Positions 2,492-61,168 of a DNA stretch of 64,000 bases are shown here, one piece after another. The notes under the pieces were generated by a model. That model was not told the origin of the DNA, did no database searches, and saw nothing but the letters and a program-made list of their open reading frames with translations. Position 1 is the first letter of the stretch; each line of letters begins with the position of its first letter. A program made the position numbers and the translations under genes. Origin of the DNA: Candidatus Doudnabacteria bacterium (GTDB lineage Bacteria; Patescibacteriota; Doudnabacteria; UBA920); the NCBI GenBank assembly GCA_003151625.1, contig PLYC01000010.1, positions 133,515 to 197,514 of the forward strand, written 5' to 3'.

Positions 2492-3250
2492 TCACCTTAT
2501 TAGCAATGCCGCGCCCAAGGCGCCGGCGTTTTTTAATTTGGAAACCACAATACGAGGTTTTACTCTATAAGTTGAAAACATATTGGCGCAAATTGTTTCG
2601 GCATTTTTCACAAATTTGCGTTTACTATCGGTTGAGACTCCCCCGCCCAAAACTATAATATCCGGATCAAGCATGCGGCAAATATTCCACAATAAGAGGC
2701 TTACGATTTGTGACAGCTGCCTGTTATTATGGGAGTCGCGGGCTTTTTGAAAAAGACTTTCAAAAGTGTGCTTGCCGTCGTAAAGCATCCGGCCTACTTC
2801 TCCGGCTCCATAATGCCCTCCGGTATAAACTTTTCCGTCTAAAACAAAACCGCTGCCTACGCCGGTTCCTAAGATTACACCGACAACACTGTTATAATTC
2901 TTTCCTTGCCCTAATTTTGCTTCGGCGTAAGCAAAACACTTGGCATCGTTTGCGACCTCGAGTTTGAATTTATTCCCAAATAATTTTTTAAAATTAAAAT
3001 TGTTAATATACTTAATGTTCGGCGAATAAACGGCCGTTTGCTTTTTTATATTTATCACTCCTGCCATGCCTATGCCAATGCCGGTAATTTTCCGTCCGAC
3101 CGATAAAAAAGCCACCAAATGTTTTAGGCCATATGCAAAATCAGCCGCTGTTTTTGGAGTGACGATGGTCAGTTCTTTAATAACTTTTTTCCCGTCAAAC
3201 AAAATACCGGCGATTTTTGTCCCCCCAATATCTATTCCAATAATGTACAT
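2492..3250 (-). CDS. ROK-family sugar kinase (glucokinase-like)
   Basis: N-terminus YIIGIDIGGTKIAGILFDGK and GILGTGVGSGFVLDGKVYTGGHYGAGEVG are ROK signatures. Confidence 0.75.
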   Translation of the reverse strand: MYIIGIDIGGTKIAGILFDGKKVIKELTIVTPKTAADFAYGLKHLVAFLSVGRKITGIGIGMAGVINIKKQTAVYSPNIKYINNFNFKKLFGNKFKLEVANDAKCFAYAEAKLGQGKNYNSVVGVILGTGVGSGFVLDGKVYTGGHYGAGEVGRMLYDGKHTFESLFQKARDSHNNRQLSQIVSLLLWNICRMLDPDIIVLGGGVSTDSKRKFVKNAETICANMFSTYRVKPRIVVSKLKNAGALGAALLIR

Positions 3251-3255
3251 AGTAC

Positions 3256-3335
3256 TAAATAAAATTGACCAAAATTAAATAAAATTAAATAAAATTTGGA
3301 GATGTCTCTCAATTTTACTTATTTTTACTTAATTT
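3256..3335. repeat. AT-rich inverted-array element R5 (AAATAAAATT direct repeats facing AATTTTACTT repeats). Other copies at 9265-9370 and 57640-57735
   Basis: All three copies share the core aaattgaccaWaattaaRtaaaatt ... aattttacttaattttatttaatt. Confidence 0.5.
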
Positions 3336-3338
3336 TAT

Positions 3339-4328
3339 TTAATTCTTAAATAACTCTCTTGCCCTGTCCCAAAACTCCGGATGCCCGTGTTGCTGCATCC
3401 AATACCACCATTCTACACCCCATAGGTACTGCGGCGAAAACCCGGTTCCCGCGGCATGGGAAATAATTGTATTAAAATTATACATACTCATTGTTTTAAA
3501 CTGCTGGTCTATGGGCGTATTTGGAATGCCGGCGGTTGTCCATGGCTCTGCCTCAAGCTCGACTATCATTACTGGCTTGCCCGGATGAAGCACTCTTAAC
3601 AGCCCTGCTTTGAAACGGTAAAACCACGAAAAAAAATAAAAGTTTGTCCAATAGCGGTGCAGCACATCGGAATAAACATACCGGTAGTATGTTGTGCCAA
3701 ATTCATCTCCTCTGTCGCCCGCTTTAACCCACCAGTTTAGCTCACCGCTGTCGGTAATTAAAACCGAGCGGGACGGATCTAAATTTTTTACCAAAGCAAT
3801 TTCCTTATCAAAAAAGTTGACATCGAGCGGCGGACAGGGGCCAAATGAAGATAAAAATGGTTCGTTTTCCACCTGCCAAGTAGTTACAGAGCTGTCACCC
3901 TGGTATTTTTGTACCACAGTTTCTACATAAGACAACTGGGCATTTTGTTCGTCGGCAATTGATAATTTTGATGCCCATCCAGGTTCGTGACACTCCGGCC
4001 AACGCGGCAGGCGCTTACCAACAGCTAGAACTACCTGGACATGATTTTGCTTAGCCAAATCCAGCATATAATTTATATCATCAAAATTATATTGGTCGCG
4101 AGTATTTTCTACCTCGTCCCAATAAACCGGAATGCGGATTAATTTTACGCCGAGATCTTGGGTTGTGGACGCGTATGCCGCTTTCCAATCTATGCCCAAA
4201 CCCTGGGCGTAAGGCACGCTAAAAGTCACTCCGTACTGGATTTTTTTTGCTTTGGTACCGGCATTAAGCGTTACACACCAAATCGCCAGAACAATTAAAA
4301 TTACGGCAATTAATATTTTTCTTAACAT
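3339..4328 (-). CDS. Secreted glycoside hydrolase, clan GH-A (GH5-like TIM barrel)
   Basis: N-terminal signal peptide MLRKILIAVILIVLAIWCVTLNA. Motif WQVENEP carries the NEP acid/base; YWDEVE is also present. Confidence 0.6.
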   Translation of the reverse strand: MLRKILIAVILIVLAIWCVTLNAGTKAKKIQYGVTFSVPYAQGLGIDWKAAYASTTQDLGVKLIRIPVYWDEVENTRDQYNFDDINYMLDLAKQNHVQVVLAVGKRLPRWPECHEPGWASKLSIADEQNAQLSYVETVVQKYQGDSSVTTWQVENEPFLSSFGPCPPLDVNFFDKEIALVKNLDPSRSVLITDSGELNWWVKAGDRGDEFGTTYYRYVYSDVLHRYWTNFYFFSWFYRFKAGLLRVLHPGKPVMIVELEAEPWTTAGIPNTPIDQQFKTMSMYNFNTIISHAAGTGFSPQYLWGVEWWYWMQQHGHPEFWDRARELFKN

Positions 4329-7184: not shown

Positions 7185-7535
7185 TTATCTGTTTATTAAA
7201 AGCACGCTAAGTATTTTCATCACCTCTTCTAGCAAAGAATCAACTTTGGTAAAATTTAAATTTTTTCCCAATGGAAGTTTTTTTGCAATTTCAATTTGAG
7301 TTTCAAGCCCCGCTCCCGAACCAAACGCTATGGATAAAAAATGATAGAATTCTTTATCGGAGCCGCGTCGTCTCCCCTCAGCAATATTTGAAGGCATTGA
7401 TACTCCGCATCGTCTCGACTGAGAAACCAATCCGTACAACTCACTCCTAGGGTAATTCTCTGTAAGTAGATAAACTTCTAATACCAACTCCATCGATTTC
7501 TGCCAGACTATTAAATTTTTATAATTGGGCTGCAT
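7185..7535 (-). CDS. Four-helix-bundle protein (TIGR02436 / 23S rRNA IVS protein family)
   Basis: Motifs NLIVWQKSMELVLEVY, SQSRRCGVSMPSNIAEGRRRGSDKEFYHFLSIAFGS and ETQIEIAKKL. Confidence 0.75.
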   Translation of the reverse strand: MQPNYKNLIVWQKSMELVLEVYLLTENYPRSELYGLVSQSRRCGVSMPSNIAEGRRRGSDKEFYHFLSIAFGSGAGLETQIEIAKKLPLGKNLNFTKVDSLLEEVMKILSVLLINR

Positions 7536-9304: not shown

Positions 9305-9406
9305 AAATGGGGTGCTACATAATTATGTCAATTTTTTAAATTTTACTTAATTTTGCTCAATTCATTTTATTATACCATATCTATGGAGATTATCCCAGGG
9401 CAAATT

Positions 9407-9447: not shown

Positions 9448-9532
9448 TTCCGCCAGCCTAGGCTGGCGGATCCGCCTCCCTTCGAGGGTCTGAGGACCAC
9501 TCAGGGTCTCGAACGACCGGCGGAAAGTACAG
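9448..9532 (+). ncRNA. Candidate structured leader or small RNA
   Basis: GC-rich multi-hairpin segment in an AT-rich spacer: CCGCCAGCC-TAG-GCTGGCGG, CCCTTCGAGGG, CTGAG-GACCA-CTCAG, GGTC-TCGAAC-GACC. Sits directly downstream of a strong promoter. Confidence 0.3.
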
Positions 9533-11668: not shown

Positions 11669-11740
11669 TATTAATTGATATTAGGATATTAGGATATTCT
11701 TGATAATATCAGCCAATATCTATAATATCTATTAATATCT
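11666..11740. repeat. AT-rich inverted array (GATATTA x4 / TAATATC-type) between convergent genes
   Basis: tGATATTAattGATATTAgGATATTAgGATATT ... ATATCTATAATATCTATTAATATC. Likely a bidirectional terminator hairpin. Confidence 0.5.
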
Positions 11741-13018
11741 TTCCAGGTATCCCAAGACTATATCTTCCGCTTCTTCCAAATCTTTTGCGTTTAAAAGTTT
11801 GGCGCGGAGTTCGTGGGCGCCATTAAAACCACTGCAATAGGTTTTAAACTGTTTGCGCATTATAAAAAAAGATTTATGCTCGCCCAAGGTGTCTTGGAAT
11901 AGTTTGGCATGTTCGAGCATTGCCCGAAATCTCTCATTTAAACCAGGATGATAATCATCGGCGAGGAATAGCCACGGATTGCCAAACGCTCCCCTGCCTA
12001 TCATAACCCCGTCGCATCCGGTTTGCGCCACCCGTTCCAAGCCTTCTTGGCGTGACTTAATATCGCCGTTGCCTATAATTAGCGGCCGCAGGCCAACTTC
12101 TTTCCCTCTCCCTCTGGGAGAGGGTGAAGGGTGAGGGTTCATCGGAAACATTTCATCCCTAATCTCAACCGCCTCTTTAATGGCTTCCCAATGCGCCGGG
12201 GCTTTGGATTTTTCCTGCTTGGTGCGGGCGTGCAAAGTTAAAGCCGCAATGTTGGTTTCCAATAAATTTCTAACCCAATCGCCCATTTCATCGGTTTTAC
12301 TGTATCCCAATCTGGTTTTGACCGATACCGGTAAAAAACCGGCGGCTTTTTTTGTGGCGCTAATAATTTCCTGCGCCAATTTTGGCTCACGAATTAACGC
12401 GGCACAAGCGCCAATGCCGATTTCTTTGTCCTGCGGACAGCCCATATTTATGTCTATTCCGTCAAAACCCAAATCCACAATAATTTTGGCCGCCTCCTCA
12501 AACTTGGCCGGAGAATTTCCCCAAATTTGAGCGACTATCGGCCGCTGGATTTCCGAGTACTTTAAATCTATGGCCAAATTTTTCCTGCCCTCCGGATGCG
12601 TTAACCCGTCTACATTTATAAATTCCGTATACATTACGAAGCTATTACCACCTCCCCCCGCTGCGCGGGGTACTCCTCCTATGATAGGAGGAGATCTCCG
12701 CGTGTCATTCTGGGATAACTGCGGAGCGTTCCCCTCCTTGCTTAGGAGGGGTGGCTCGCGCAGCGAGACGGGGTGGTGACCGCTATAGCGGGCAAACATT
12801 TCCCGAAACGCAAAATCCGTTACCTCCTCCATGGGAGCAAGACAGAAAATCGGTTTACCCAGCACCTTCCAAAAATTATGCCCACCAGCTTCACCCAAAG
12901 CAAAAACCTCTGATTTTACATCAGATTTTCCATTTTGAAAGAAGGTGCTGGGCTTGTTAAGTTTTTGCCAGAAGCTGGACATATAGCTAAGTTTAATCAA
13001 AATACCGCTCCCGTGCAA
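11732..13018 (-). CDS. tRNA-dihydrouridine synthase (Dus family) carrying two in-frame GC-rich insertions
   Basis: Motifs LAPMEEVTDFAFREM, IDINMGCPQ and NGDI fit the Dus family. The probable true start is the Met at 12981, because the first Met lies inside the rplL terminator hairpin. Confidence 0.8.
   Translation of the reverse strand: MHGSGILIKLSYMSSFWQKLNKPSTFFQNGKSDVKSEVFALGEAGGHNFWKVLGKPIFCLAPMEEVTDFAFREMFARYSGHHPVSLREPPLLSKEGNAPQLSQNDTRRSPPIIGGVPRAAGGGGNSFVMYTEFINVDGLTHPEGRKNLAIDLKYSEIQRPIVAQIWGNSPAKFEEAAKIIVDLGFDGIDINMGCPQDKEIGIGACAALIREPKLAQEIISATKKAAGFLPVSVKTRLGYSKTDEMGDWVRNLLETNIAALTLHARTKQEKSKAPAHWEAIKEAVEIRDEMFPMNPHPSPSPRGRGKEVGLRPLIIGNGDIKSRQEGLERVAQTGCDGVMIGRGAFGNPWLFLADDYHPGLNERFRAMLEHAKLFQDTLGEHKSFFIMRKQFKTYCSGFNGAHELRAKLLNAKDLEEAEDIVLGYLERY
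12104..12137. repeat. Short GC-rich palindromic in-frame insertion in the Dus gene
   Basis: CCCTCTCCCTCTGGGAGAGGGTGAAGGGTGAGGG encodes the extra segment PHPSPSPRGRGKEVG. Confidence 0.6.
12648..12778. repeat. GC-rich palindromic element inserted in-frame in the Dus gene (family with 60840-60937 and 12104-12137)
   Basis: Terminal CCACCTCCCC...GGGGTGGTG, internal hairpins CTCCTCCTATGATAGGAGGAG and CCCCTCCTTGCTTAGGAGGGG. GC content far above the surrounding gene. Confidence 0.7.
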
Positions 13019-13035
13019 CGGGAGCGGTATTTGAA
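13000..13035 (-). terminator. Rho-independent terminator downstream of rplL
   Basis: Perfect hairpin ATACCGCTCCCG-TGCAA-CGGGAGCGGTAT followed by TTTTGATT on the minus strand. Confidence 0.7.
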
Positions 13036-13131
13036 TATTCGATGATAATCAATATTGCCTTAGAAGGGATCCTTCGCCCTCGGATGCACTCGGGCTCAGG
13101 ATGACCCTCAAATAATTTTATTGCTGAAAAA

Positions 13132-13527
13132 TTATTTGAGGGTCACTTTGCCACCAGCCTCTTCCAATTTCTTTTTTAAGGCTTCGGCATCGGCTTTCGG
13201 CATGTTTTCTTTGATAATTTTAGGAGCGCCGTCTACCATATCTTTGGCTTCCTTAAGACCGACCTGGGTAACTTCGCGGACAACTTTAATAACGTTAATT
13301 TTGCTGGCACCGGCTTCGGTTAATTCAACCGAGAATTCGGTTTTCTCTTCCGCAACGGCGGCGGCCGGACCTGCGGCCATCATCATAGGAGCGGCGGCAG
13401 AAACGCCAAACTTGCCTTCCAAAACTTTTACCAATTCAGCCAACTCCATAACGGAGAGCTTTTCTACCTGTTCCACGAGAGTTTTAAACTTCTCGGGCAC
13501 AACTACGGATTCTTTTTCTTCACTCAT
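13132..13527 (-). CDS. rplL: Ribosomal protein L7/L12
   Basis: Motifs [20 protein letters not shown] and [26 protein letters not shown]. Confidence 0.92.
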
Positions 13528-14222: not shown

Positions 14223-14465
14223 AAATTAGTAGTTAGTAGTTAGTATCTAGCTTTTCGACCTTTAATTGTAAATATCTCAAAAATAAAACTCGGGCTTACC
14301 CGAGTGGTTGTAGTTGCCCGATTCATCAGGCCATAAAGCTTCATAAATGAAGCAACTACATATTCCTCGGTGGGCAACCATCTTGCGATGATAATTATGA
14401 CCCTACGGGTCACCAACTGTCTTTGGATATTTTCCCGCAGAGCGGGATCCGCCTTTGGCGGAAAC
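14223..14465 (-). promoter_or_regulatory. Putative rplJ (L10) leader region
   Basis: About 240 nt structured 5' UTR between the mapped promoter and the rplJ start, where the L10(L12)4 autoregulatory leader normally lies. Contains hairpins, for example GGGATCCGCCTTTGGCGG. Confidence 0.4.
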
Positions 14466-19598: not shown

Positions 19599-19673
19599 TG
19601 GGGTGTCGCCAAGCGGTAAGGCAGGGGCCTTTGAAGCCCCCATTCGTAGGTCCGAATCCTACCACCCCAGCCA
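19599..19673 (+). tRNA. tRNA-Gln (anticodon UUG)
   Basis: Manual cloverleaf: acceptor TGGGGTG/CACCCCA (U1-A72 as in E. coli tRNA-Gln), D-arm GCC-AAGCGGTAA-GGC, anticodon arm GGGGC-CTTTGAA-GCCCC, T-arm GTAGG-TCCGAAT-CCTAC, G73, CCA. Confidence 0.8.
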
Positions 19674-19909
19674 TTAGTAAATAATTTATAAAGCATTGGC
19701 GTCGCTCGTCTCGGCTTCGCCGAGCCGAAGTCGGACCAAGCAGCCCGTCTCGGCCGAGGCTATCCGAATTAGCCGAGCCGAGGTCGGATAAGGCAGGGGC
19801 CTTTGAAGCCCCCATTCGTAGGTTCGAATCCTACCGCCCCAGCCAACAACTCTCTCATAATACCGGAGACCGAAGAGTATCAGCGTTTCAAGAGACAGTC
19901 AATGATTTT

Positions 19910-47061: not shown

Positions 47062-47490
47062 TTGCTAATAATTAAACTTAATTTTATGAAAGGATTTAAC
47101 ACCAATATCGAAAAAGCGACTTTAGAAAATAATAATTTTCGTAAAGTCTTGTATACGGCTAAACATAGCCAATTAGTACTAATGAGCCTTTTACCAAACG
47201 AGGAGATTGGTATGGAGGTACACAAGGATAATGACCAATTCTTCCGTTTTGAACAGGGCCAAGGCAAGTGCATTATTGACGGCAATGAATATCAAGTTAC
47301 GGATGGCTCGGCCATAATAGTTCCGGCCGGAGCGGAGCATAATGTAATTAATACCTCCGAAACCGAGGAGCTAAAGCTCTACACCATTTATTCCCCGGCT
47401 CACCATAGAGACGGAGTGGTGCGGATGACTAAAGAACAGGCCGAAGCAAAAGAAAATGAAGAAGAGTTTGATGGGGTGACGACGGAATAA
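47062..47490 (+). CDS. Cupin-domain protein (paralog of 55173-55577)
   Basis: About 80% amino-acid identity with the minus-strand copy 8 kb away. Cupin motifs G(X)5HxH...G and PAGxxH. Confidence 0.7.
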   Translation: MLIIKLNFMKGFNTNIEKATLENNNFRKVLYTAKHSQLVLMSLLPNEEIGMEVHKDNDQFFRFEQGQGKCIIDGNEYQVTDGSAIIVPAGAEHNVINTSETEELKLYTIYSPAHHRDGVVRMTKEQAEAKENEEEFDGVTTE

Positions 47491-51483: not shown

Positions 51484-51770
51484 ATAAAAAAAATGTTAAA
51501 TCTTCATCCTATAACATAACCTTTAAGCTAAAAGCTTTGGCTAAGGAAAAGGAAGAAGTCAGACACAGGCTGGTAATAACCGCAAAAAACCTCAGCCTCA
51601 AAGCTAAACAACTGGTTAAGATAGCCAAGGAAAAAGAAGACGTTAGGCTCAGGCTGGCGGTAACGGCCAAAAACCTTAGCCTTAAAGCCAAACAACTCGT
51701 GGTAACGGCCAAGGAAAAGGAAGAAGTCAGACGCAGGTTGGTAGTAACGGCAAAGAACCTCAGCCTTTAA
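51480..51770 (+). CDS. N-terminal coiled-coil tandem-repeat segment of the histidine kinase, cut off by a 1-nt indel
   Basis: 27-aa repeats KAKQLV(K/V)IAKEKEDVRLRLAVTAKNLSL x3.5. Removing one T at about 51766 fuses this frame to the kinase ORF. Confidence 0.5.
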   Translation: MNKKNVKSSSYNITFKLKALAKEKEEVRHRLVITAKNLSLKAKQLVKIAKEKEDVRLRLAVTAKNLSLKAKQLVVTAKEKEEVRRRLVVTAKNLSL

Positions 51771-51786
51771 AGCTAAGCAGCTACTT

Positions 51787-53118
51787 GTGATAGCCAAGGA
51801 AAAAGAAGACGTTAGGCTCAAGCTGGCGGTAACGGCAAATGAATTGAAAAAGTCGCGCGAAACGCTCGAGAAAAAAGTTCTTGAACGGACCAAAAACCTT
51901 GAGCGGATTACAGCCAGAAACGAAGCCATGCTTGCGAGTGTTGGCGATGGTTTGGTGGTGGTGGATAAAGAAGGTAAAATAACTTATATTAACAAATCTT
52001 TTGAGGAGACGCTTGGTTTGAAAGTGCAGGAAGTAATCGGCAGGAGCATGGTTAAAGTGGTGCCCAGGGAAGACCAGAGCGGGACAGAGGTGCAATTTAA
52101 AGAAAGAATTTTAACTCAAGTCTTGCTGGGAAAAAAGTTTGTAGCCGATTTAACCAACCCTTTTTATTATATCCGTAAAGATAAAAGCAGATTCCCTGTC
52201 AGTAGTATTATAACGCCTGTCGTTCTGGACGGAAAAATTATTGGGGCGGTAGAAACGTTTAGAGATATTACCAAAGAAAAAGATATTGACAAAGCCAAAT
52301 CGGAATTCGTCTCGCTGGCTTCGCACCAGCTCCGTACCCCGCTTTCTACCATTAATTGGTATACGGAGATGCTTCTGGCGGAAGACGTCGGCAAAATCAT
52401 GCCTGAACAGAAAAAATATCTGGACGAGGTCTACCGCGGTACTCAAAGAATGACTGAGCTGGTCAACGCTCTTTTGAATATTTCCAGCATTGAATTAGGG
52501 ACATTTGTTGTTGACCCGGAACCAACAGACATAATCAAACTCGCGCAAGGCGAAATTGAGGAACAAAAACTGCAAATTGACGCCAAGCGTATAAAATTTT
52601 CTTCCTCATTCAAAAAGGATATTCCCGTGATTCTCGCCGATCCGAAACTCCTGCATATGGTCATGCAAAATCTTTTGACTAACGTCGTGAAATATACTCC
52701 CGAAGGGGGCAAGGTTACGCTTGAGATTGTCTTATCAGATGACCAAGGACGAACGACTCTCCCGAGTAAAATTAAAAGGTCACATGTCCTGATTAAAGTT
52801 TCCGATACGGGTTATGGCATTCCAAAGAACCAACAGGACAAAATTTTTACCAAGCTGTTCCGTGCCGATAACGTGCGGGACAAAGATACCGAAGGAACAG
52901 GCCTCGGGCTTTACATTGTAAAATCAATTATTGAACATTCCGGCGGCAAGATTTGGTTTGAGTCTCCGGGAGATGCACCTGTGGGAGGGAAGGATTTAGC
53001 CTTGGAGGGCAACCCCGGCACCACTTTTTATGCAACGCTTCCTTTGAATTCGGTGAAAAAGTCCGTCGAACGTGGATCTGTCTCTGATAAAAAAGAAGCC
53101 GCCAAGACAAATGATTAA
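51787..53118 (+). CDS. Sensor histidine kinase (PAS + HisKA + HATPase_c), cytoplasmic
   Basis: H-box FVSLASHQLRTPLSTI, N-box LLTNVVKYTPEGG and G-boxes DTGYGIP and GTGLGLYIVK. Confidence 0.85.
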   Translation: MIAKEKEDVRLKLAVTANELKKSRETLEKKVLERTKNLERITARNEAMLASVGDGLVVVDKEGKITYINKSFEETLGLKVQEVIGRSMVKVVPREDQSGTEVQFKERILTQVLLGKKFVADLTNPFYYIRKDKSRFPVSSIITPVVLDGKIIGAVETFRDITKEKDIDKAKSEFVSLASHQLRTPLSTINWYTEMLLAEDVGKIMPEQKKYLDEVYRGTQRMTELVNALLNISSIELGTFVVDPEPTDIIKLAQGEIEEQKLQIDAKRIKFSSSFKKDIPVILADPKLLHMVMQNLLTNVVKYTPEGGKVTLEIVLSDDQGRTTLPSKIKRSHVLIKVSDTGYGIPKNQQDKIFTKLFRADNVRDKDTEGTGLGLYIVKSIIEHSGGKIWFESPGDAPVGGKDLALEGNPGTTFYATLPLNSVKKSVERGSVSDKKEAAKTND

Positions 53119-55172: not shown

Positions 55173-55577
55173 TTATTCAGTTGTAACACCGTCAAACTCT
55201 TCGTCATTTTCCTTTGCTTCAGCTTGTTGTTTGGTCGTACGTACAATGCTGTCTTTATGATGGGGCGGAGAATAAAGGGTGTACATTTTAAGATCTTCTT
55301 TTTTTGAAGTGTTAATAATATTGTGTTGCGATCCAGCAGGCACAATAACAGCTGACCCGTCAGCAATCGGGTATTCGTTGCCGTCAATAACGCATTTGCC
55401 CTGACCCTGTTCAAAACGGAAAAACTGGTCGTTGTCTTCATGGACCTCCATGCCGATTTCCTCTTGCGGCTTCAAACACATCAATACCAGCTGGCTGCGT
55501 TTAGCTGTATAAAGCACTTTGCGGAAATTATTGTTTCCCAAAGTATTTTTTTCAATGTCCGTTTTAAATCCCTTCAT
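55173..55577 (-). CDS. Cupin-domain protein (inverted paralog of 47062-47490)
   Basis: See the plus-strand copy. Confidence 0.7.
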   Translation of the reverse strand: MKGFKTDIEKNTLGNNNFRKVLYTAKRSQLVLMCLKPQEEIGMEVHEDNDQFFRFEQGQGKCVIDGNEYPIADGSAVIVPAGSQHNIINTSKKEDLKMYTLYSPPHHKDSIVRTTKQQAEAKENDEEFDGVTTE

Positions 55578-56037
55578 AAAAAATTTAATTTATTATACTT
55601 CCACGCAATAAGTTTGTTCACAAAATTATTATTTTATATTAATATAGTTTTAGTTTTCGGCCTTTGCTTTTACCGGTATAAGTTTTCTGTAGCCGCTCCA
55701 TCGTGTTGGAAATGATTTTAAATCCAATAGCCATTTTTTAATTTTCGTAAAGTTTTTTTCCTTGGCTCCTTAAGCATAGAATTTATTATAACTTCTGTAT
55801 ACGGCAAAAATCTGTATTACAACATTAAAGCCTCAGCTAAGCCTTAAGAAATATTTAATAGCCTAGTTAAATAACTTATTAATTGTTTAACTGAAGATAT
55901 TACCCATAAAATAGGTAGAAGGTTCACAACAAGTGGATAATTAACCTTGTAGCTATATCTATCCTCCATAATAGAGAGTACGCTTAAGGCTCTGGATATA
56001 AAGCAACAAAGGTCGAAAATAATAAGGAGAAAAATAT

Positions 56038-57256: not shown

Positions 57257-57634
57257 ATGGATCAGGACAAAGATTTAGAAAAAAAAATAAATTTATATCA
57301 AGATGTGGCAAAAGACAACCCCAATGTGGATGTAGGGATGTTAATGTTAAATGCTCTGCAGAATGAAGATAAAAACAAAGTTTCGTCTAAAATGAAACGC
57401 TGGTCGTATTTAATTTCCCTGAGCGCGCCGCCTTTTGGTCTGCTGTTTGCTTTAAAACTTTATTTTAGCGACGAGGACGATGCCAAAGATGTGGCCTGGA
57501 TGTGCGTAACTTTAACAGCGGTATCTATATTGCTGTTTGCCATTGGCGCCAAAATGTTGTTTTCCAGTTCCGGTGCCAGCGTCAGCCAAATTGAAAAAAT
57601 TACTCCCCAGCAAATTCAGGAGCTGGGACAATAA
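57257..57634 (+). CDS. Hypothetical membrane protein
   Basis: 125 aa with two hydrophobic segments. Confidence 0.4.
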   Translation: MDQDKDLEKKINLYQDVAKDNPNVDVGMLMLNALQNEDKNKVSSKMKRWSYLISLSAPPFGLLFALKLYFSDEDDAKDVAWMCVTLTAVSILLFAIGAKMLFSSSGASVSQIEKITPQQIQELGQ

Positions 57635-57741
57635 AAAGTATTAAGTAAAATTGACCATAATTAAGTAAAATTAAATAAAATTTACTTCAGCCCAATTTTA
57701 CTTAATTTTATTTATTTTTATTTATTTTTAATTAATACTCT

Positions 57742-59475
57742 TTATTTTCCCGCCGTTCGTGTGGGAGCTACCTGCATATAATTTAAAATAAATTGCGCCA
57801 ATTGGCCCCAGGGCGGCACAGCCGTGCTTTCGGCAAAGTTGGCGTCACGCGGATGGTCCACCCGAATAAGCATGACAAACTGGGGATTTTCCACCGGCGC
57901 GAAACCAATAAAAGATCCGATGTTGTCGTTGACAATATATTTACCGTTTTGAACAACTTGAGCGGTGCCGGTTTTCCCCGCCACATAATAACCCGGCACT
58001 GCGGCTTTTTTTCCAAAACCGTTTTCCACTACATCCACCAGCATCGCGTCTATTGTGGCGGCAGTTTGAGGCGAAATTACCTGGCTAACAACCTGGGCTT
58101 GGGTGTTTTTGATAGTTCCATCGGGATAAATTTTAGACTGAACAATATACGGCTTCATCATTTTCCCGCCGTTGGCCAGGGCTCCGTAAGCCTGAAGCAT
58201 TTGGATTGGCGTAGCGGAAATCCCCTGCCCAAAACTCGCCGTGTCATAATTTACCGCAACATTGCCGTTAAGCCCGCTTAAGTCGCCTCTGGTCTCCGGC
58301 AGTTCAATGCCGGTGGGTTTGCCAAACCCGAACTTTTGTACATATTTTAAAAAGTCCGGGTTGCCCAATTGATTTTCCGTGTAAATCGCGCCAGTGTTAA
58401 GCGACCAATCCAAAACCTGGGTCATAGTTTGTACGCCACGCGCGCCGGGTTCCGCATTTTTAATTACATAATTATCCACCGCGACCTTCCCGGTATCGGT
58501 GTAAGTGGTGTCCGGGGTAATTTTCCCCTCGTCCAAAGCCGCGGCCATAGTAATGGCTTTAAAAGTTGAGCCCGGCTCGTAAGCCCCGGTTACAGCCTGG
58601 TTGTTGAACACCGAGGGGTCAGTAACTTTTCCGTAATTATTAGGGTCAAAATCGGGATAACTGGCAATGGCTAAAATCGCTCCGGTTTTGGGATTCATAA
58701 CAATAACATCACCGCTGTCCGCGCCGTTTTTGGTTACCATATCTTTAAGCACGCTCTCGGCCTGAAACTGGATGGTCTTGTCCACGGTCAAAATTAAATT
58801 CACACCGTCTTCGGCCGGTTTTTCGTTATTCGTCGCTCCAAAAATTTGCGCTCCGGATGGATCTTGCTCCGCTACCAGTTCACCGGGCGTGCCGGCTAGC
58901 TCTTTATCAAAATATCTTTCCAGCCCGTACAAACCCGATTTTTGCCCCGCGGCGTTAAAGCCCACAAAACCCAAAGTCTGGCTTAGCAACGTGTTTTGCG
59001 GGTATATTCTGGTGTCCTCGGAATCAAAATAAATTCCCGGGAGAGCCAAATCTTTTATTTTTTGCTGTTCGCTGTCCGTGAGCTGTTTTTTTAACGGGAC
59101 ATATTTTTTGTCCGTTTGAATAATTTTTGCCAGAACATCTTTTGAATTTAAATTTAAAACCGATGCCAAACTGCTGGCGGCTAAATTGGGATTTAAAATG
59201 TCGTTTGGCACAGCGTAAACTAAATAGCTTTTGGTATTGGTGGCCACCGGAACGGTTTGCTCGGAAAATTTGTCCGCCAATTTAATTTCGCCGCGGCTGG
59301 GAAATAATTTTAAATATATGCTGTGTTGTTGGTTGGCTTCCAGCCTGGCCTGGGCGCCGCGAATCACCTGCAAATAAAATAATCTATAAACTATAACGGC
59401 AAAAAACAGCAATAAAAAAGCAGTCAAAAGGCTGCTTCTGTGGTTAAAGGAACTTTGAACTATTTTACGAGCCAT
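57742..59475 (-). CDS. ftsI: Peptidoglycan D,D-transpeptidase (class B PBP, FtsI-like)
   Basis: N-terminal TM anchor, STFK active-site motif, SLN and KTGTA. dcw-cluster context with ftsL, rsmH and mraZ. Confidence 0.9.
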   Translation of the reverse strand: MARKIVQSSFNHRSSLLTAFLLLFFAVIVYRLFYLQVIRGAQARLEANQQHSIYLKLFPSRGEIKLADKFSEQTVPVATNTKSYLVYAVPNDILNPNLAASSLASVLNLNSKDVLAKIIQTDKKYVPLKKQLTDSEQQKIKDLALPGIYFDSEDTRIYPQNTLLSQTLGFVGFNAAGQKSGLYGLERYFDKELAGTPGELVAEQDPSGAQIFGATNNEKPAEDGVNLILTVDKTIQFQAESVLKDMVTKNGADSGDVIVMNPKTGAILAIASYPDFDPNNYGKVTDPSVFNNQAVTGAYEPGSTFKAITMAAALDEGKITPDTTYTDTGKVAVDNYVIKNAEPGARGVQTMTQVLDWSLNTGAIYTENQLGNPDFLKYVQKFGFGKPTGIELPETRGDLSGLNGNVAVNYDTASFGQGISATPIQMLQAYGALANGGKMMKPYIVQSKIYPDGTIKNTQAQVVSQVISPQTAATIDAMLVDVVENGFGKKAAVPGYYVAGKTGTAQVVQNGKYIVNDNIGSFIGFAPVENPQFVMLIRVDHPRDANFAESTAVPPWGQLAQFILNYMQVAPTRTAGK

Positions 59476-59995: not shown

Positions 59996-60121
59996 AGACT
60001 CATTTGCTGACGATTTTAATTTTTATTTTTTGTTTTGAGCTTTTGGCTTGTTTTATTTTTATTTTTCCGGCGGAGCCGGATCCCGTTCCGCGGGACATAT
60101 CCATAATCATTTATTTGCGTG

Positions 60122-61168
60122 TTAAAGTTTTGTAATCGCTCTTAGCTTTGCCGGTTTGCTTTTACTATTCAGTGCTAATTCGTGCGAATTAGCACTCACC
60201 GGTTTTTTTGTTAAAATTCTGCCCCTAGGGTCTCGCCCGCAAATACATTGGGGGAAATCTGGAGGGCAAACACAGCCTTTGGTTAACCCAACAAAAAATT
60301 GTTTAACAATTCTGTCTTCCAGAGAATGAAAGCTTACCACCACAAGCCTACCGCCGGGAACTAACAAATCAAAGGCTTTGGGCAAAAATTCCTGCAAATT
60401 TTCCAACTCGTGATTAACCTCTATCCTCAAGGCCTGGAAAATTCTCCTGGCACTGTCATCGGCCTTATGCTTTACCGGCTTTGGCAGCGCCTCTTCGATA
60501 ATCTGATAAAGTTGGTCTGTGTGCGTTATTTGGTTCCTGGTTCTTGAGTCTTGAATCTTCCGGCCTATTTGCCGGGCAAACTTCTCCTCGCCGTAATCTT
60601 CAAAAATTTTTATCAGCCGTTTTTCGTCGTAACTATTTAAAATAAACTTTGCATCTTCCGGCTGGCTTTGGTTAAACCTCATATCCAGCGGCTGGTTTGT
60701 CTGGAAGCTAATTCCGCGATGTTCTAATTCGTACGATGACAGTCCGAGATCTGCGACAATCCCGTCAGGAGCGGGAAAATTATGATTCTTTACTATGTGA
60801 TCTATCTTGGCAAAATTCCCCTGGATTATCATCGCGTTTCCACCCTCCCCTAGCCCCTCCCCTGAAGGGAGGGGAAAAGAACCCCCTAGATGTTCTGCAG
60901 TTTCCTCTCCCTTTAGGGGGGAGGTTAGGTGGGGGTGATTTTTGATATTTAAAATTTGAAGTTTAAAATTTTCTACCGCATCTTTATCCAAATCAATGGC
61001 CAGTAATTTCCCAGTTTTACCAATTTCTTTTAATATCGCTTTACTGTATCCCCCACCTCCTAAAGTCGCGTCCACGATATTCTGACCAGAACCGGGACTA
61101 AGATACTCCAAAACCTCGTTAAGTAGGACTGGAATGTGTTCATAGGTGTTCATTATGATATTAACCAA
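60122..61168 (-). CDS. rsmH: 16S rRNA (cytosine1402-N4)-methyltransferase RsmH with an in-frame GC-rich insertion
   Basis: HIPVLLNEVLEYL, VDATLGGGGYS and FHSLEDRIVK motifs. Extra segment HLTSPLKGEETAEHLGGSFPLPSGEGLGEGG. Confidence 0.9.
   Translation of the reverse strand: MVNIIMNTYEHIPVLLNEVLEYLSPGSGQNIVDATLGGGGYSKAILKEIGKTGKLLAIDLDKDAVENFKLQILNIKNHPHLTSPLKGEETAEHLGGSFPLPSGEGLGEGGNAMIIQGNFAKIDHIVKNHNFPAPDGIVADLGLSSYELEHRGISFQTNQPLDMRFNQSQPEDAKFILNSYDEKRLIKIFEDYGEEKFARQIGRKIQDSRTRNQITHTDQLYQIIEEALPKPVKHKADDSARRIFQALRIEVNHELENLQEFLPKAFDLLVPGGRLVVVSFHSLEDRIVKQFFVGLTKGCVCPPDFPQCICGRDPRGRILTKKPVSANSHELALNSKSKPAKLRAITKL
60840..60937. repeat. GC-rich palindromic element inserted in-frame in rsmH (same family as 12648-12778)
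   Basis: CCACCCTCCCC...GGTGGGGGTG termini. Internal hairpins CCCCTCCCC-TGAA-GGGAGGGG and CCTCTCCC-TTTA-GGGGGGAGG. Confidence 0.7.

Follow-up and report, generated by a model that had tools for sequence, protein, structure and literature searches.

In-frame GC-rich palindromic repeats in the dus and rsmH genes of a Candidatus Doudnabacteria bacterium, and the association of their units with DUF559 nuclease genes

The closest described counterparts of the sequences considered here are the Rickettsia palindromic elements (RPEs), of which RPE-1 and its relatives (Ogata et al. 2000) are summarised in PMC10969869 and PMC3733652. In this study, a stretch of 64,000 nucleotides from a Candidatus Doudnabacteria bacterium (contig PLYC01000010.1, positions 133,515 to 197,514; hereafter the window) was analysed, in which GC-rich palindromic segments are carried within dus, the gene for a tRNA-dihydrouridine synthase, and rsmH, the gene for the 16S rRNA m4C1402 methyltransferase. 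These inserts are probably copies of a non-coding palindromic repeat family, similar to repetitive extragenic palindromes (REPs) and RPEs, which entered essential genes by insertion or recombination, at surface loops that tolerate them, and whose sequence is today transcribed and translated as part of the host protein. As with RPEs, they are palindromic repeats of approximately 100-150 bp lying in frame in many unrelated housekeeping open reading frames (ORFs) of a host-dependent bacterium with a reduced genome, the added peptide is tolerated by the protein fold, intergenic copies are also present, and no dedicated transposase is known for either group. RPEs end in CGTC (PMC3733652), and the unit found here has an invariant CCCCGTC tag. 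In contrast to RPEs, the present elements are GC-rich in a genome of 43% GC, are inverted dimers whose fold comprises five hairpins plus a closing stem, occur in Patescibacteria and one Bacteroidota genome, and consist of units that bracket DUF559 nuclease genes, for which we know of no report in RPEs. No sequence relation was apparent and the two groups are likened by description; the elements are an analogue of RPEs in a patescibacterial host, and not members of that group.

REPs and their composite forms (BIMEs and REPINs) offer a second comparison. Shared with these are a short, GC-rich stem-loop flanked by a conserved unpaired tag and, at the opposite end, by a CCA-like tail, the formation of head-to-head and tail-to-tail dimers and of mosaic clusters, and the location of copies just past stop codons, with some copies intragenic. 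The full element, an inverted doublet that folds as a whole into one long hairpin, resembles a REPIN, and a small nuclease gene flanked by inverted units resembles a REPtron. REPs are mainly extragenic, however, whereas the full-length dimers found here were mostly intragenic, and each unit here has a second, pyrimidine/purine hairpin. CGTC-tagged REPs, which include RPE-4 and RPE-6 of Rickettsia, also have no dedicated transposase (PMC3733652), but their stems are of 8-9 bp with A-T in the first two pairs and their loops of 4-5 nt, compared with stems of 5-7 bp and loops of 3-4 nt here. Because of these differences in stem and loop size, membership in CGTC-1 to CGTC-4 is not claimed. The flanked gene is also different from that of a REPtron, as it encodes a Vsr-like PD-(D/E)xK protein of the DUF559 family and not an HUH/Y1 transposase (RAYT).

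Miniature inverted-repeat transposable elements (Correia/NEMIS, ERIC, RUP and Nezha) are likewise small, have terminal inverted repeats, fold into a single long hairpin and give occasional in-frame fusions. Unlike for these, no target-site duplication and no insertion sequence with matching ends were found here, and the copies are old and diverged (approximately 76% identity) and not near-identical. GC-rich or perfect palindromes in coding genes, some of them translated, are also known from organelles (yeast mitochondrial GC clusters, Allomyces double-hairpin elements, the coding palindromes of Nematomorpha (PMC6649704) and byp of Magnusiomyces), but these belong to organelle genomes, have other sequences and lack a nuclease cassette, and byp is bypassed and not translated. 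Inteins, group I/II introns and CRISPR were dropped as candidates, the segments being too short and having neither catalytic domains nor a spacer-repeat array. Intragenic repeats of the GTAG/CGTC REP/RPE type are known in several phyla, including in Rickettsia, Opitutus and Stenotrophomonas (PMC3733652, PMC10969869), and the kind of element is to that extent already known. In the literature, the coverage of which was incomplete so that absence is weak evidence, no description for Patescibacteria (the candidate phyla radiation, CPR) and no link between DUF559 and such repeats were found. The link to DUF559 may be a new lead to a mobilising enzyme.

The dus ORF extends over positions 11732-13018 of the minus strand (PF01207, E 2.9e-61), with a probable ATG at 12982 and a product of 416 aa, and is host to two inserts, elements A and C. 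Element A (12647-12777, minus strand) is a palindromic element of 131 nt, composed of two inverted units, U and U', around a loop. Its GC content was 63%, compared to 43% for the window, and it is read in frame within dus as ..HHPVSLREPPLLSKEGNAPQLSQNDTRRSPPIIGGVPRAAGGGGN... The 146-nt stretch around it folded with -83.4 kcal/mol on the sense strand and -91.6 kcal/mol on the antisense strand; the z-scores of the fold were -7.6 and -8.4, respectively, and none of 200 shuffled sequences was as stable. The covariance model presented below gave element A 127.9 bits on the sense strand. Element A was absent from the closest relative of the window, locus L003, and from insert-free orthologues.

Unit U, of approximately 55 nt, reads (CTCCA)ACCACCCCGTC, hairpin h1, (C)CA, CCCCTCCT..AGGAGGGG, AA, GCTCCGC, and an element of type A is formed by two units head to head, as U, a loop of 15-20 nt and U', which is approximately the reverse complement of U. 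On the minus (sense) strand of dus, the 5' terminal arm ACCACCCC (12770-12777) pairs with the 3' terminal arm GGAGGTGGT (12647-12655, placed by alignment), and the pairs of this closing helix were invariant in 30 copies. Between the arms, on the same strand, h1 (CTCGC TGC GCGAG, 12755-12767; helix 2) has the CCCCGTC tag before it and the CCA tail after it, and is followed by the perfect hairpin h2 (CCCCTCCT AAGCA AGGAGGGG, 12731-12751; helix 3), by h3 (GCTCCGC ... GCGGAG with the 19-nt loop L1, 12696-12727; helix 4), which is the junction between both inverted units, by the perfect hairpin h4 (CTCCTCCT ATCAT AGGAGGAG, 12673-12693; helix 5) and by h5 (CCCCGC GCA GCGGGG, 12656-12670; helix 6), which is preceded by an invariant GAGTA(C). 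An earlier reading of this DNA from its letters only (hereafter the sequence-only reading) had quoted h2 as CCCCTCCT TGCTT AGGAGGGG and h4 as CTCCTCCT ATGAT AGGAGGAG, and these were located at the positions given above. Helix 3 was paired in 97.5% and helix 6 in 98.2% of cases; double changes were observed in 4 of the 7 pairs of helix 2 and in 3 of the 6 pairs of helix 6, and helix 5 had U-A to C-G double changes in 9 copies. The CCCCGTC 5' of h1 was invariant in 26 aligned copies, its G, T and C being partly paired in the model, and CCA or ACA stood between h1 and h2 in nearly all copies. The h1 stems were G-C rich and of 5-7 bp, with loops of 3-4 nt.

Insert C is a 54-nt block (12101-12154, minus strand) identified by pairwise DNA alignment as absent from L003. 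Its core (12104-12137) is a single-hairpin unit, CCCTCACCC-TTCA-CCCTCTCCC AGA GGGAGAGGG on the sense strand, with a perfect 9-bp hairpin CCCTCTCCC TCT GGGAGAGGG and then a purine tail GTGAAGGGTGAGGG that repeats the 3' arm; the peptide reads ..MFPMNPHPSPSPRGRGK... The same unit was present in the dus gene of locus L004 with a compensatory stem change, and the insert at this site is a single-hairpin relative of the dimer family. The third insert lies in the rsmH ORF (60122-61168, minus strand; PF01795, E 1.5e-93), as a divergent palindromic element of approximately 100 nt at 60837-60941, annotated on the plus strand from its sequence and the covariance model and in frame with rsmH. It contains the hairpin CCCCTCCC CTGAA GGGAGGGG (60854-60874) and adds the peptide ..HPHLTSPLKGEETAEHLGGSFPLPSGEGLGEGGN... 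The dus-type model scored 34.1 bits (E 1.4e-7) on the plus strand, antisense to rsmH, compared with 22.0 bits on the minus (sense) strand. A sister half-unit of this insert was found at L003:6285-6330, and the insert is a divergent dimer. Exactly four perfect hairpins with a pyrimidine arm and a purine arm and a stem of at least 7 bp were present in the 64-kb window, compared with 0.04 expected from shuffles, and all four fell within element A, element C and the rsmH insert. The dus and rsmH ORFs run through all three inserts without a stop codon.

The two dus segments pointed out in the sequence-only reading are real, with coordinates correct to within 1 nt (12647-12777, given there as 12648-12778, and 12104-12137). 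Its statement that they interrupt conserved Dus blocks in frame was borne out, as the ORF reads through without a stop, the quoted peptides were recovered, and the segments are missing from insert-free orthologues and from the Thermotoga Dus structure 1VHN, which aligned in three pieces with both inserts skipped. The segments had been described as nested hairpins and treated as alike. They are strongly folding and GC-rich, but the structure is one of five local hairpins plus a closing stem and not only one long nested hairpin, and both are palindromic inserts but of different sub-families, namely a 131-nt inverted dimer and a single-hairpin unit. The claim that the same element type sits in rsmH held in so far as the model detected a related in-frame insert, although a divergent one that scored better antisense.

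Presence and absence of the inserts were assessed among orthologues. The homologue search returned thousands of patescibacterial Dus proteins of 303-462 aa, of which 25 were aligned. The gene order L10, L7/L12, dus and a protein of approximately 680 aa was conserved in the fetched loci, so the compared dus genes are orthologues. Four length-variable hotspots were recognised in the 25 proteins: A after ..FARYS, B after ..ATKxG, C after ..IRDE and D after ..NPWFF. At site A the window has 48 residues, compared with 12 in its closest relative and 0-2 in some orthologues; at site C it has 25, compared with 7 in the closest relative. DNA of the element A type was found at site A in the window, L001 and L002, and at site B in L002, L006 and L007, and the remaining orthologues had unrelated palindromes or nothing at the same sites. 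L003 shares 94-99% DNA identity with the window over 7.9 kb (about 96%), and its dus has no N-terminal extension, no element C and, in place of element A, a 36-nt AT-rich linker. Mismatches between the window and L003 were clustered beside the insert sites, while the rest of dus was nearly identical. In L003 a C-type unit lies between genes at 7464-7500, 8 nt past the stop of a LexA-like gene, and a different spacer holds an rsmH-type unit; neither unit is present at the syntenic positions of the window. For rsmH, orthologues were mostly of 308-315 aa without the insert, which was missing in the closest orthologue, P0123, and common to P0122; P0133 carried the 5' half of a dus-type element at the rsmH insert site. 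The same insert was recovered from independent assemblies of NCBI, ENA, JGI and Logan.

Several further features of the dus locus were noted. The N-terminus of the window Dus (12860-12982, minus strand) appears to be duplicated (MSSFWQKLNKP ... GHNFWKVLGKP), with an AT-rich hairpin AAATCTGATGTAAAATCAGAGGTTT among the approximately 25 codons between the copies. This extension is common to P0003, P0038 and P0042, whereas the L003 protein begins directly with MINFWQNLPKP. The extension is possibly yet another kind of insertion, in which a long stretch was duplicated or the start codon displaced. Between dus and rplL (12990-13118), the intergenic DNA contains a perfect hairpin ATACCGCTCCCGTGCAACGGGAGCGGTAT and a second palindromic block of high GC content, GATCCTTCGCCCTCGGATGCACTCGGGCTCAGGATGACC, after which comes an inverted repeat rich in AT, CCCTCAAATAATTTT...AAATTATTTGAGGG; this spacer was not alignable with L003. 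Unrelated palindromic or repeat-derived inserts occupy the dus hotspots of other genomes, at site C in P0006, P0037, P0052 and P0098, at site D in P0003, P0016, P0026, P0036, P0042 and P0052, and at site A in L004, L006 and L007. Their peptides include the types VIARSASDEAIL...RND and AQPNQNINAGTPRSFSEGGG; the insert of L004 is an AT-rich inverted repeat, and that of L006 includes a CCCGCCTTCGCTAAAGCTTCGGCGGGC hairpin which is also an extra module inside the elements of L039 and L050. Genes for 23S rRNA intervening-sequence proteins (PF05635), another small gene type typical of palindrome-flanked inserts, were observed near dus at differing positions (L001:7560-7928, L002:15619-15972 and L006:8217-8573).

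An exact 25-base pattern derived from six dus copies was scanned over 185,579 species genomes. It gave 61 matches in 54 stretches, and in only six genomes: five patescibacterial metagenome-assembled genomes (MFD03726.bin.1.241, three labelled Candidatus Doudnabacteria and one labelled Saccharibacteria) and an isolate of Bacteroidota, Labilibacter marinus. A scan of viral contigs with the element pattern gave no match, and hence no evidence for a phage vector. The copies comprised approximately 40 full-length elements (94-167 nt, mostly 128-131 nt) and approximately 24 of half length, with the terminal inverted ends CTCCAACCACCCC and GGGGnGGTTGGAG paired in most copies. Units stood head to head in 23 dimers and tail to tail in 9. 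Plain MAFFT alignment mis-registered h1 and RNAalifold missed it; for this reason a covariance model (R1) was built from a hand-written structure, with the closing stem CTCCAACCACCCC/GGGGnGGTTGGAG and five hairpins, and used for realignment. Model R1 detected 89 distinct sites in 518 kb, including dus element A and the rsmH insert. Two intergenic copies in Labilibacter marinus Y11 (L056:2498-2615 and L058:6972-7075) had the module order and the exact core motifs of the patescibacterial element; one Y11 copy is in a 1-kb spacer beside a porin-like gene.

In an alignment of 30 copies, which was itself fitted to the model, 92.4% of the pair cells were paired, compared with 85.7% in shuffles and 52-57% in slid controls, and none of 500 shuffles reached the observed value. 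Changes on both sides of a pair were found in 96 cells of the same alignment, compared with 33±5 in the control, and were concentrated in h1 and h5. No wobble signature specific to RNA was detected, with 41 G-T and 38 A-C mispairs on the sense strand. This near equality indicates that the palindrome is kept at the level of DNA, or of both strands, and not specifically in the sense RNA. No family of Rfam 15 was matched at gathering or permissive thresholds, the only hits at gathering score in the window being three tRNAs, and the region 12000-13150 had only sub-threshold chance hits. Copy identity was 0.763 within genomes and 0.759 between genomes, with no pair above 90%, and copies at the same site were barely more alike (0.69-0.83). 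Concerted evolution or a recent burst was accordingly not supported, within- and between-genome identities being equal. Direct repeats of 2-6 nt flanking 34 copies occurred at chance frequency, giving no sign of a target-site duplication, and no target motif was seen other than upstream A/T richness.

Among the pattern-defined copies with both ends, 25 of 35 were located by ORF heuristics and Pfam within long ORFs in sense orientation, flanked on either side by 40 codons or more, and 22 of these 25 shared one entry phase, ACC ACC CCG, read as TTP (TTPS..). Of the 89 model sites, 32 were in sense ORFs, these being the full-length and high-scoring ones, and 6 in antisense ORFs; only 1 of the antisense sites was a high-scoring full-length copy (a sense bias of 32:1). 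An independent greedy gene call placed 35 copies on the same strand as the gene and 5 on the opposite strand. In the host ORFs Pfam domains flank the insert on both sides, and several domain matches are split in two. The hosts include alanyl-tRNA synthetase (AlaRS), a class I aminoacyl-tRNA synthetase, transketolase, a Mur ligase, MnmA, the release factor RF1, GrpE, ATP synthase alpha/beta, an FAD oxidase and glycosyltransferases, and GatB, an RseP-type M50 protease and TatD were each found as hosts in two genomes. The frame in which a given DNA arm is read differs from copy to copy, giving GGVP in some and EEYP in others, and likewise GEVVG or GGGGG, from which it follows that the conserved entity is the DNA and not the peptide. 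Loop-length differences within an element offset one another and restore the host frame, and such conservation of frame has no simple explanation other than that the element is translated. In the preferred frame, the peptide is at its richest in Pro/Gly/Ser/Thr and least hydrophobic, a composition that fits a tolerance filter without proving one. Filtering by stop codons does not by itself suffice to explain the sense bias, as the consensus is open in three sense frames and one antisense frame; in real copies one antisense frame was open in 22 of 33. Weak and half-length copies were mostly intergenic. Of 43 intergenic copies, 33 pointed the same way as the upstream gene, and such copies often lay 1-20 nt past its stop.

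The AlphaFold2 model of the window Dus had a mean pLDDT of 72 and a pTM of 0.73, with a confident TIM barrel and helical domain. Values of pLDDT below 50 were confined to residues 1-42 (the N-terminal extension), 70-112 (element A) and 283-296 (element C). In the model, elements A and C each lie between a helix and the next strand, as does orthologue site B, and site D is the linker to the helical domain. These alpha-to-beta turns are presumably on the barrel face opposite the catalytic one, as is general for TIM barrels. The predicted structure places the dus inserts in disordered alpha-to-beta loops of the non-catalytic face.

The sequence-only reading had compared the inserts to RPEs in their colonisation of coding sequences, and had proposed an alignment of Dus orthologues, a family search and a structure prediction as checks. 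The alignment found the inserts in some lineages only, with a relative of approximately 96% identity lacking them; the search returned the 61 exact matches in 6 of 185,579 species genomes and the 89 model sites in 0.52 Mb; and the inserts were the only low-confidence internal segments of the structural model. Lineage-specific, multi-copy, loop-located inserts of this kind agree with the comparison to RPEs, but the behaviour goes beyond that account in that units are also intergenic and bracket DUF559 genes.

In intergenic DNA, units also occurred in the opposite order, U' ... U, with a gap of either approximately 20 nt or approximately 370-420 nt. The short-spacer, 'empty' dimers (L010:4985-5125, L015:1157-1276, L036:4457-4569 and L042:7503-7616) have ends reading ..GGTGGTA / TACCACC.. 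and a spacer with a ATCGGCAA-like motif in either orientation; this motif also follows many solo U' copies. The long gap holds a gene of approximately 118 codons that starts right after ..GGTTGGAG and stops directly before CTCCAACCACCCCGTC.. in L036, L017, L033 and L059. It was identified as DUF559 (PF04480, E 1.5e-32), and the bracketed genes of approximately 118 aa lie at L036:3016-3372, L017:2215-2568, L033:2118-2459 and L059:6255-6605 and 1451-1798. Often, the stop codon shares the first base of ACCACCCC (TGAccacccc). The fold of DUF559 is of the Vsr-like PD-(D/E)xK type, and the family has been placed together with Vsr and a homing endonuclease from a group I intron (PMC3424549).

As the first DUF559 loci had been picked by means of the repeat, the test was redone starting from the protein, with 80 metagenome DUF559 loci (L062-L141) comprising 78 distinct coding sequences of 29-67% GC. 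A ACCACCCC-like tag was present within 32 nt past the DUF559 stop in 40 of 76 loci, and abutted or overlapped the stop in 22. With a strict unit pattern, for which the chance rate was approximately 1.7% per window, U was found just downstream in 27 of 72, an inverted unit just upstream in 25 of 75, and both in 19 of 69. There were 26 tail-to-tail pairs with gaps of 356-430 nt, and many DUF559-flanking units in metagenomes read ACCACCCCGGC and not CCCCGTC. The association between DUF559 and the units is real and crosses phyla, which accounts for the Labilibacter copies; these imply a cross-phylum spread of the unit, probably together with DUF559 cassettes. No DDE transposase with the element ends was seen, and the sole gene with these ends was DUF559, with the ends in opposite order.

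DUF559 might serve to mobilise the units or, alternatively, be a homing nuclease that resides in them. It is comparable to free-standing and intron-borne homing endonucleases of the Vsr-like fold (I-Bth0305I, grouped with VSR/DUF559 in PMC3424549), in that DUF559 is a small, selfish-looking nuclease ORF, present (gap of approximately 370-420 nt) or absent (spacer of approximately 20 nt) between the same flanking repeats. Unlike for those enzymes, there is no intron or intein context and no known cleavage site for DUF559 here, and the 'empty' and 'occupied' sites differ in end subtype (..GGTGGTA compared with ..GGTGGTTGGAG), so that homing is hypothetical here. We tentatively put forward a wider possibility, which has somewhat less than an even chance of being correct, that the ACCACCCC-hairpin-CCCCTCCT..AGGAGGGG unit and the bracketed DUF559 gene form a widespread cross-phylum mobile system, equivalent to the REP/RAYT 'REPtron' but based on another nuclease fold, whose non-autonomous dimers colonised essential genes of Doudnabacteria-like Patescibacteria.

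If the inserts are copies of such a repeat, the units would move via hairpin or single-strand intermediates, without target duplication, and the flanked DUF559 PD-(D/E)xK nuclease might be the mobilising enzyme or a homing nuclease in the repeats, in a role analogous to that of RAYT in REPtrons. Copies may spread from strain to strain by homologous recombination of flanking gene segments, and turnover among near-identical genomes appears to occur largely through recombination of short gene segments. Purifying selection would retain only frame-keeping, stop-free copies with a benign loop rich in Pro/Gly/Ser/Thr, and protein loops might then serve as safe havens for elements in gene-dense, reduced genomes.

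Other explanations of the inserts were considered. They might be host-selected functional modules and not passengers, with the DNA or RNA hairpins or the Pro/Gly-rich peptide acting at each locus through translational pausing between folding units, control of mRNA protection or decay, or binding of a factor. Such a role would be consistent with core positions that are invariant across genes and genomes while the host proteins are only 55-65% identical, with the plateau of all copies at approximately 76% identity, with a sense orientation and an entry phase biased past stop-codon filtering, with the co-orientation of 33 of 43 intergenic copies with the upstream gene, often 1-20 nt past its stop, and with arms that are Shine-Dalgarno-like (GGAGG) and anti-Shine-Dalgarno-like (CCTCC). 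The inserts are dispensable, however, as none of the three dus inserts is present in the relative of approximately 96% identity, nor is the rsmH insert in the closest rsmH orthologue; the same hotspots are also taken up by unrelated palindromes, the mispairs (G-T 41, A-C 38) carry no RNA-specific signature, the same DNA is read in different frames so that no single peptide is conserved, and covariation in a palindrome may also result from templated repair. We consider a functional module unlikely. It is less probable still that the segments are removed or skipped, by intron-like or intervening-sequence excision of the closed stem or by bypassing as in mitochondrial byp or T4 gene 60. A closing stem that joins both ends, a very stable fold (-83 kcal/mol) and the nearly exclusive sense orientation of intragenic copies, as for elements acting at the RNA level, could be read in this way. 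Frame and avoidance of stops would be needless in a removed segment, yet the host ORF runs uninterrupted through at least approximately 80% of full-length copies, with at least 36-40 codons (dozens to hundreds) on both sides, and the loop-length changes compensate one another in frame; moreover, no Rfam family or intron signature was found and there was no wobble bias to the RNA strand.

The explanation with the least to recommend it, to which we attach almost no credence, is that the segments are not repeat copies but low-complexity linkers, either ancestral or evolved locally, or else artefacts of assembly. The insertion sites are indeed variable linkers in many orthologues and the source genomes are mostly metagenome assemblies, but copies in unrelated genes and genomes are homologous at the DNA level, the independent assemblies of NCBI, ENA, JGI and Logan have the same insert, presence and absence differ between near-identical genomes, and four perfect hairpins were found where 0.04 were expected. 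Several observations nevertheless weigh against the reading of the inserts as copies of a mobile repeat family. The window has no DUF559 gene. The differences between the window and L003 occur in patches of raised divergence, a pattern that points to allelic recombination and not to clean insertion or excision. An identity of approximately 76% with no pair above 90% indicates a family that is old and constrained, with no sign of a recent burst, and function, as opposed to selfish spread, could be behind the conserved core. Open frames would give a sense bias of approximately 3:1, compared with the 32:1 seen among high-scoring intragenic copies, and the phase bias likewise exceeds what stop codons alone would produce. 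The intragenic assignments are not curated gene calls, and most of the genomes are metagenome-assembled. Lastly, we infer transposition and enzyme activity from sequence, and translation of the inserts from the conservation of frame.

Other repeats are present in the window. A separate small family of tandem GC hairpins, TCCGCCAAAGGCGGA TCCGCCTCCGGCGGA AAA (repeat families D7 and I9), is found in either orientation in the spacers at 193-224, 9449-9490, 14433-14464 and 60066-60097. AT-rich arrays with a 10-nt period (TTTTACTTAATTTTATTTA...; families D1, D3 and I2) were found at 3236-3354, 9328-9372 and 57632-57747, those at approximately 3.3 kb and 57.7 kb being mutually inverted and 54 kb apart. 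Two adjacent tRNA genes (19599-19670 and 19776-19834) have a common 3' part of 57 nt (96% identical) and a 49-nt upstream repeat, and the second gave a partial Rfam tRNA match (35.5 bits, model positions 9-63). An 84-nt unit is repeated four times in tandem at 51516-51839, with 61-89% identity, inside overlapping ORFs (D2 and D5). A 409-nt inverted pair with 73% complementarity (47082-47490 and 55173-55581, 7.7 kb apart; I1) coincides in each segment with an ORF of approximately 135-142 aa, and the two segments are probably inverted paralogues.

Colonisation of essential genes by in-frame palindromic repeats is usually regarded as a peculiarity of Rickettsia, and it is found here with a structurally different, GC-rich family in ultra-small CPR bacteria. 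This suggests as a general rule that in gene-dense, reduced genomes selfish DNA survives in the surface loops of proteins. In CPR proteomes, repeats may often be the source of protein length and of 'lineage-specific insertions', which can distort alignments, phylogenies and predicted structures; the insert hotspots, as permissive loops, could be used in protein engineering. The bracketing of DUF559 genes by units in metagenomes of 29-67% GC suggests a possible role, open to testing, for a domain of unknown function that is very common, and makes DUF559 a candidate enzyme for a class of repeats with no known agent of mobility. If the wider system proposed above is real, the mobilising or homing enzyme that a class of tagged palindromic repeats has long lacked would be DUF559, and it might also be relevant to CGTC REPs and RPEs, which are without a dedicated transposase (PMC3733652).

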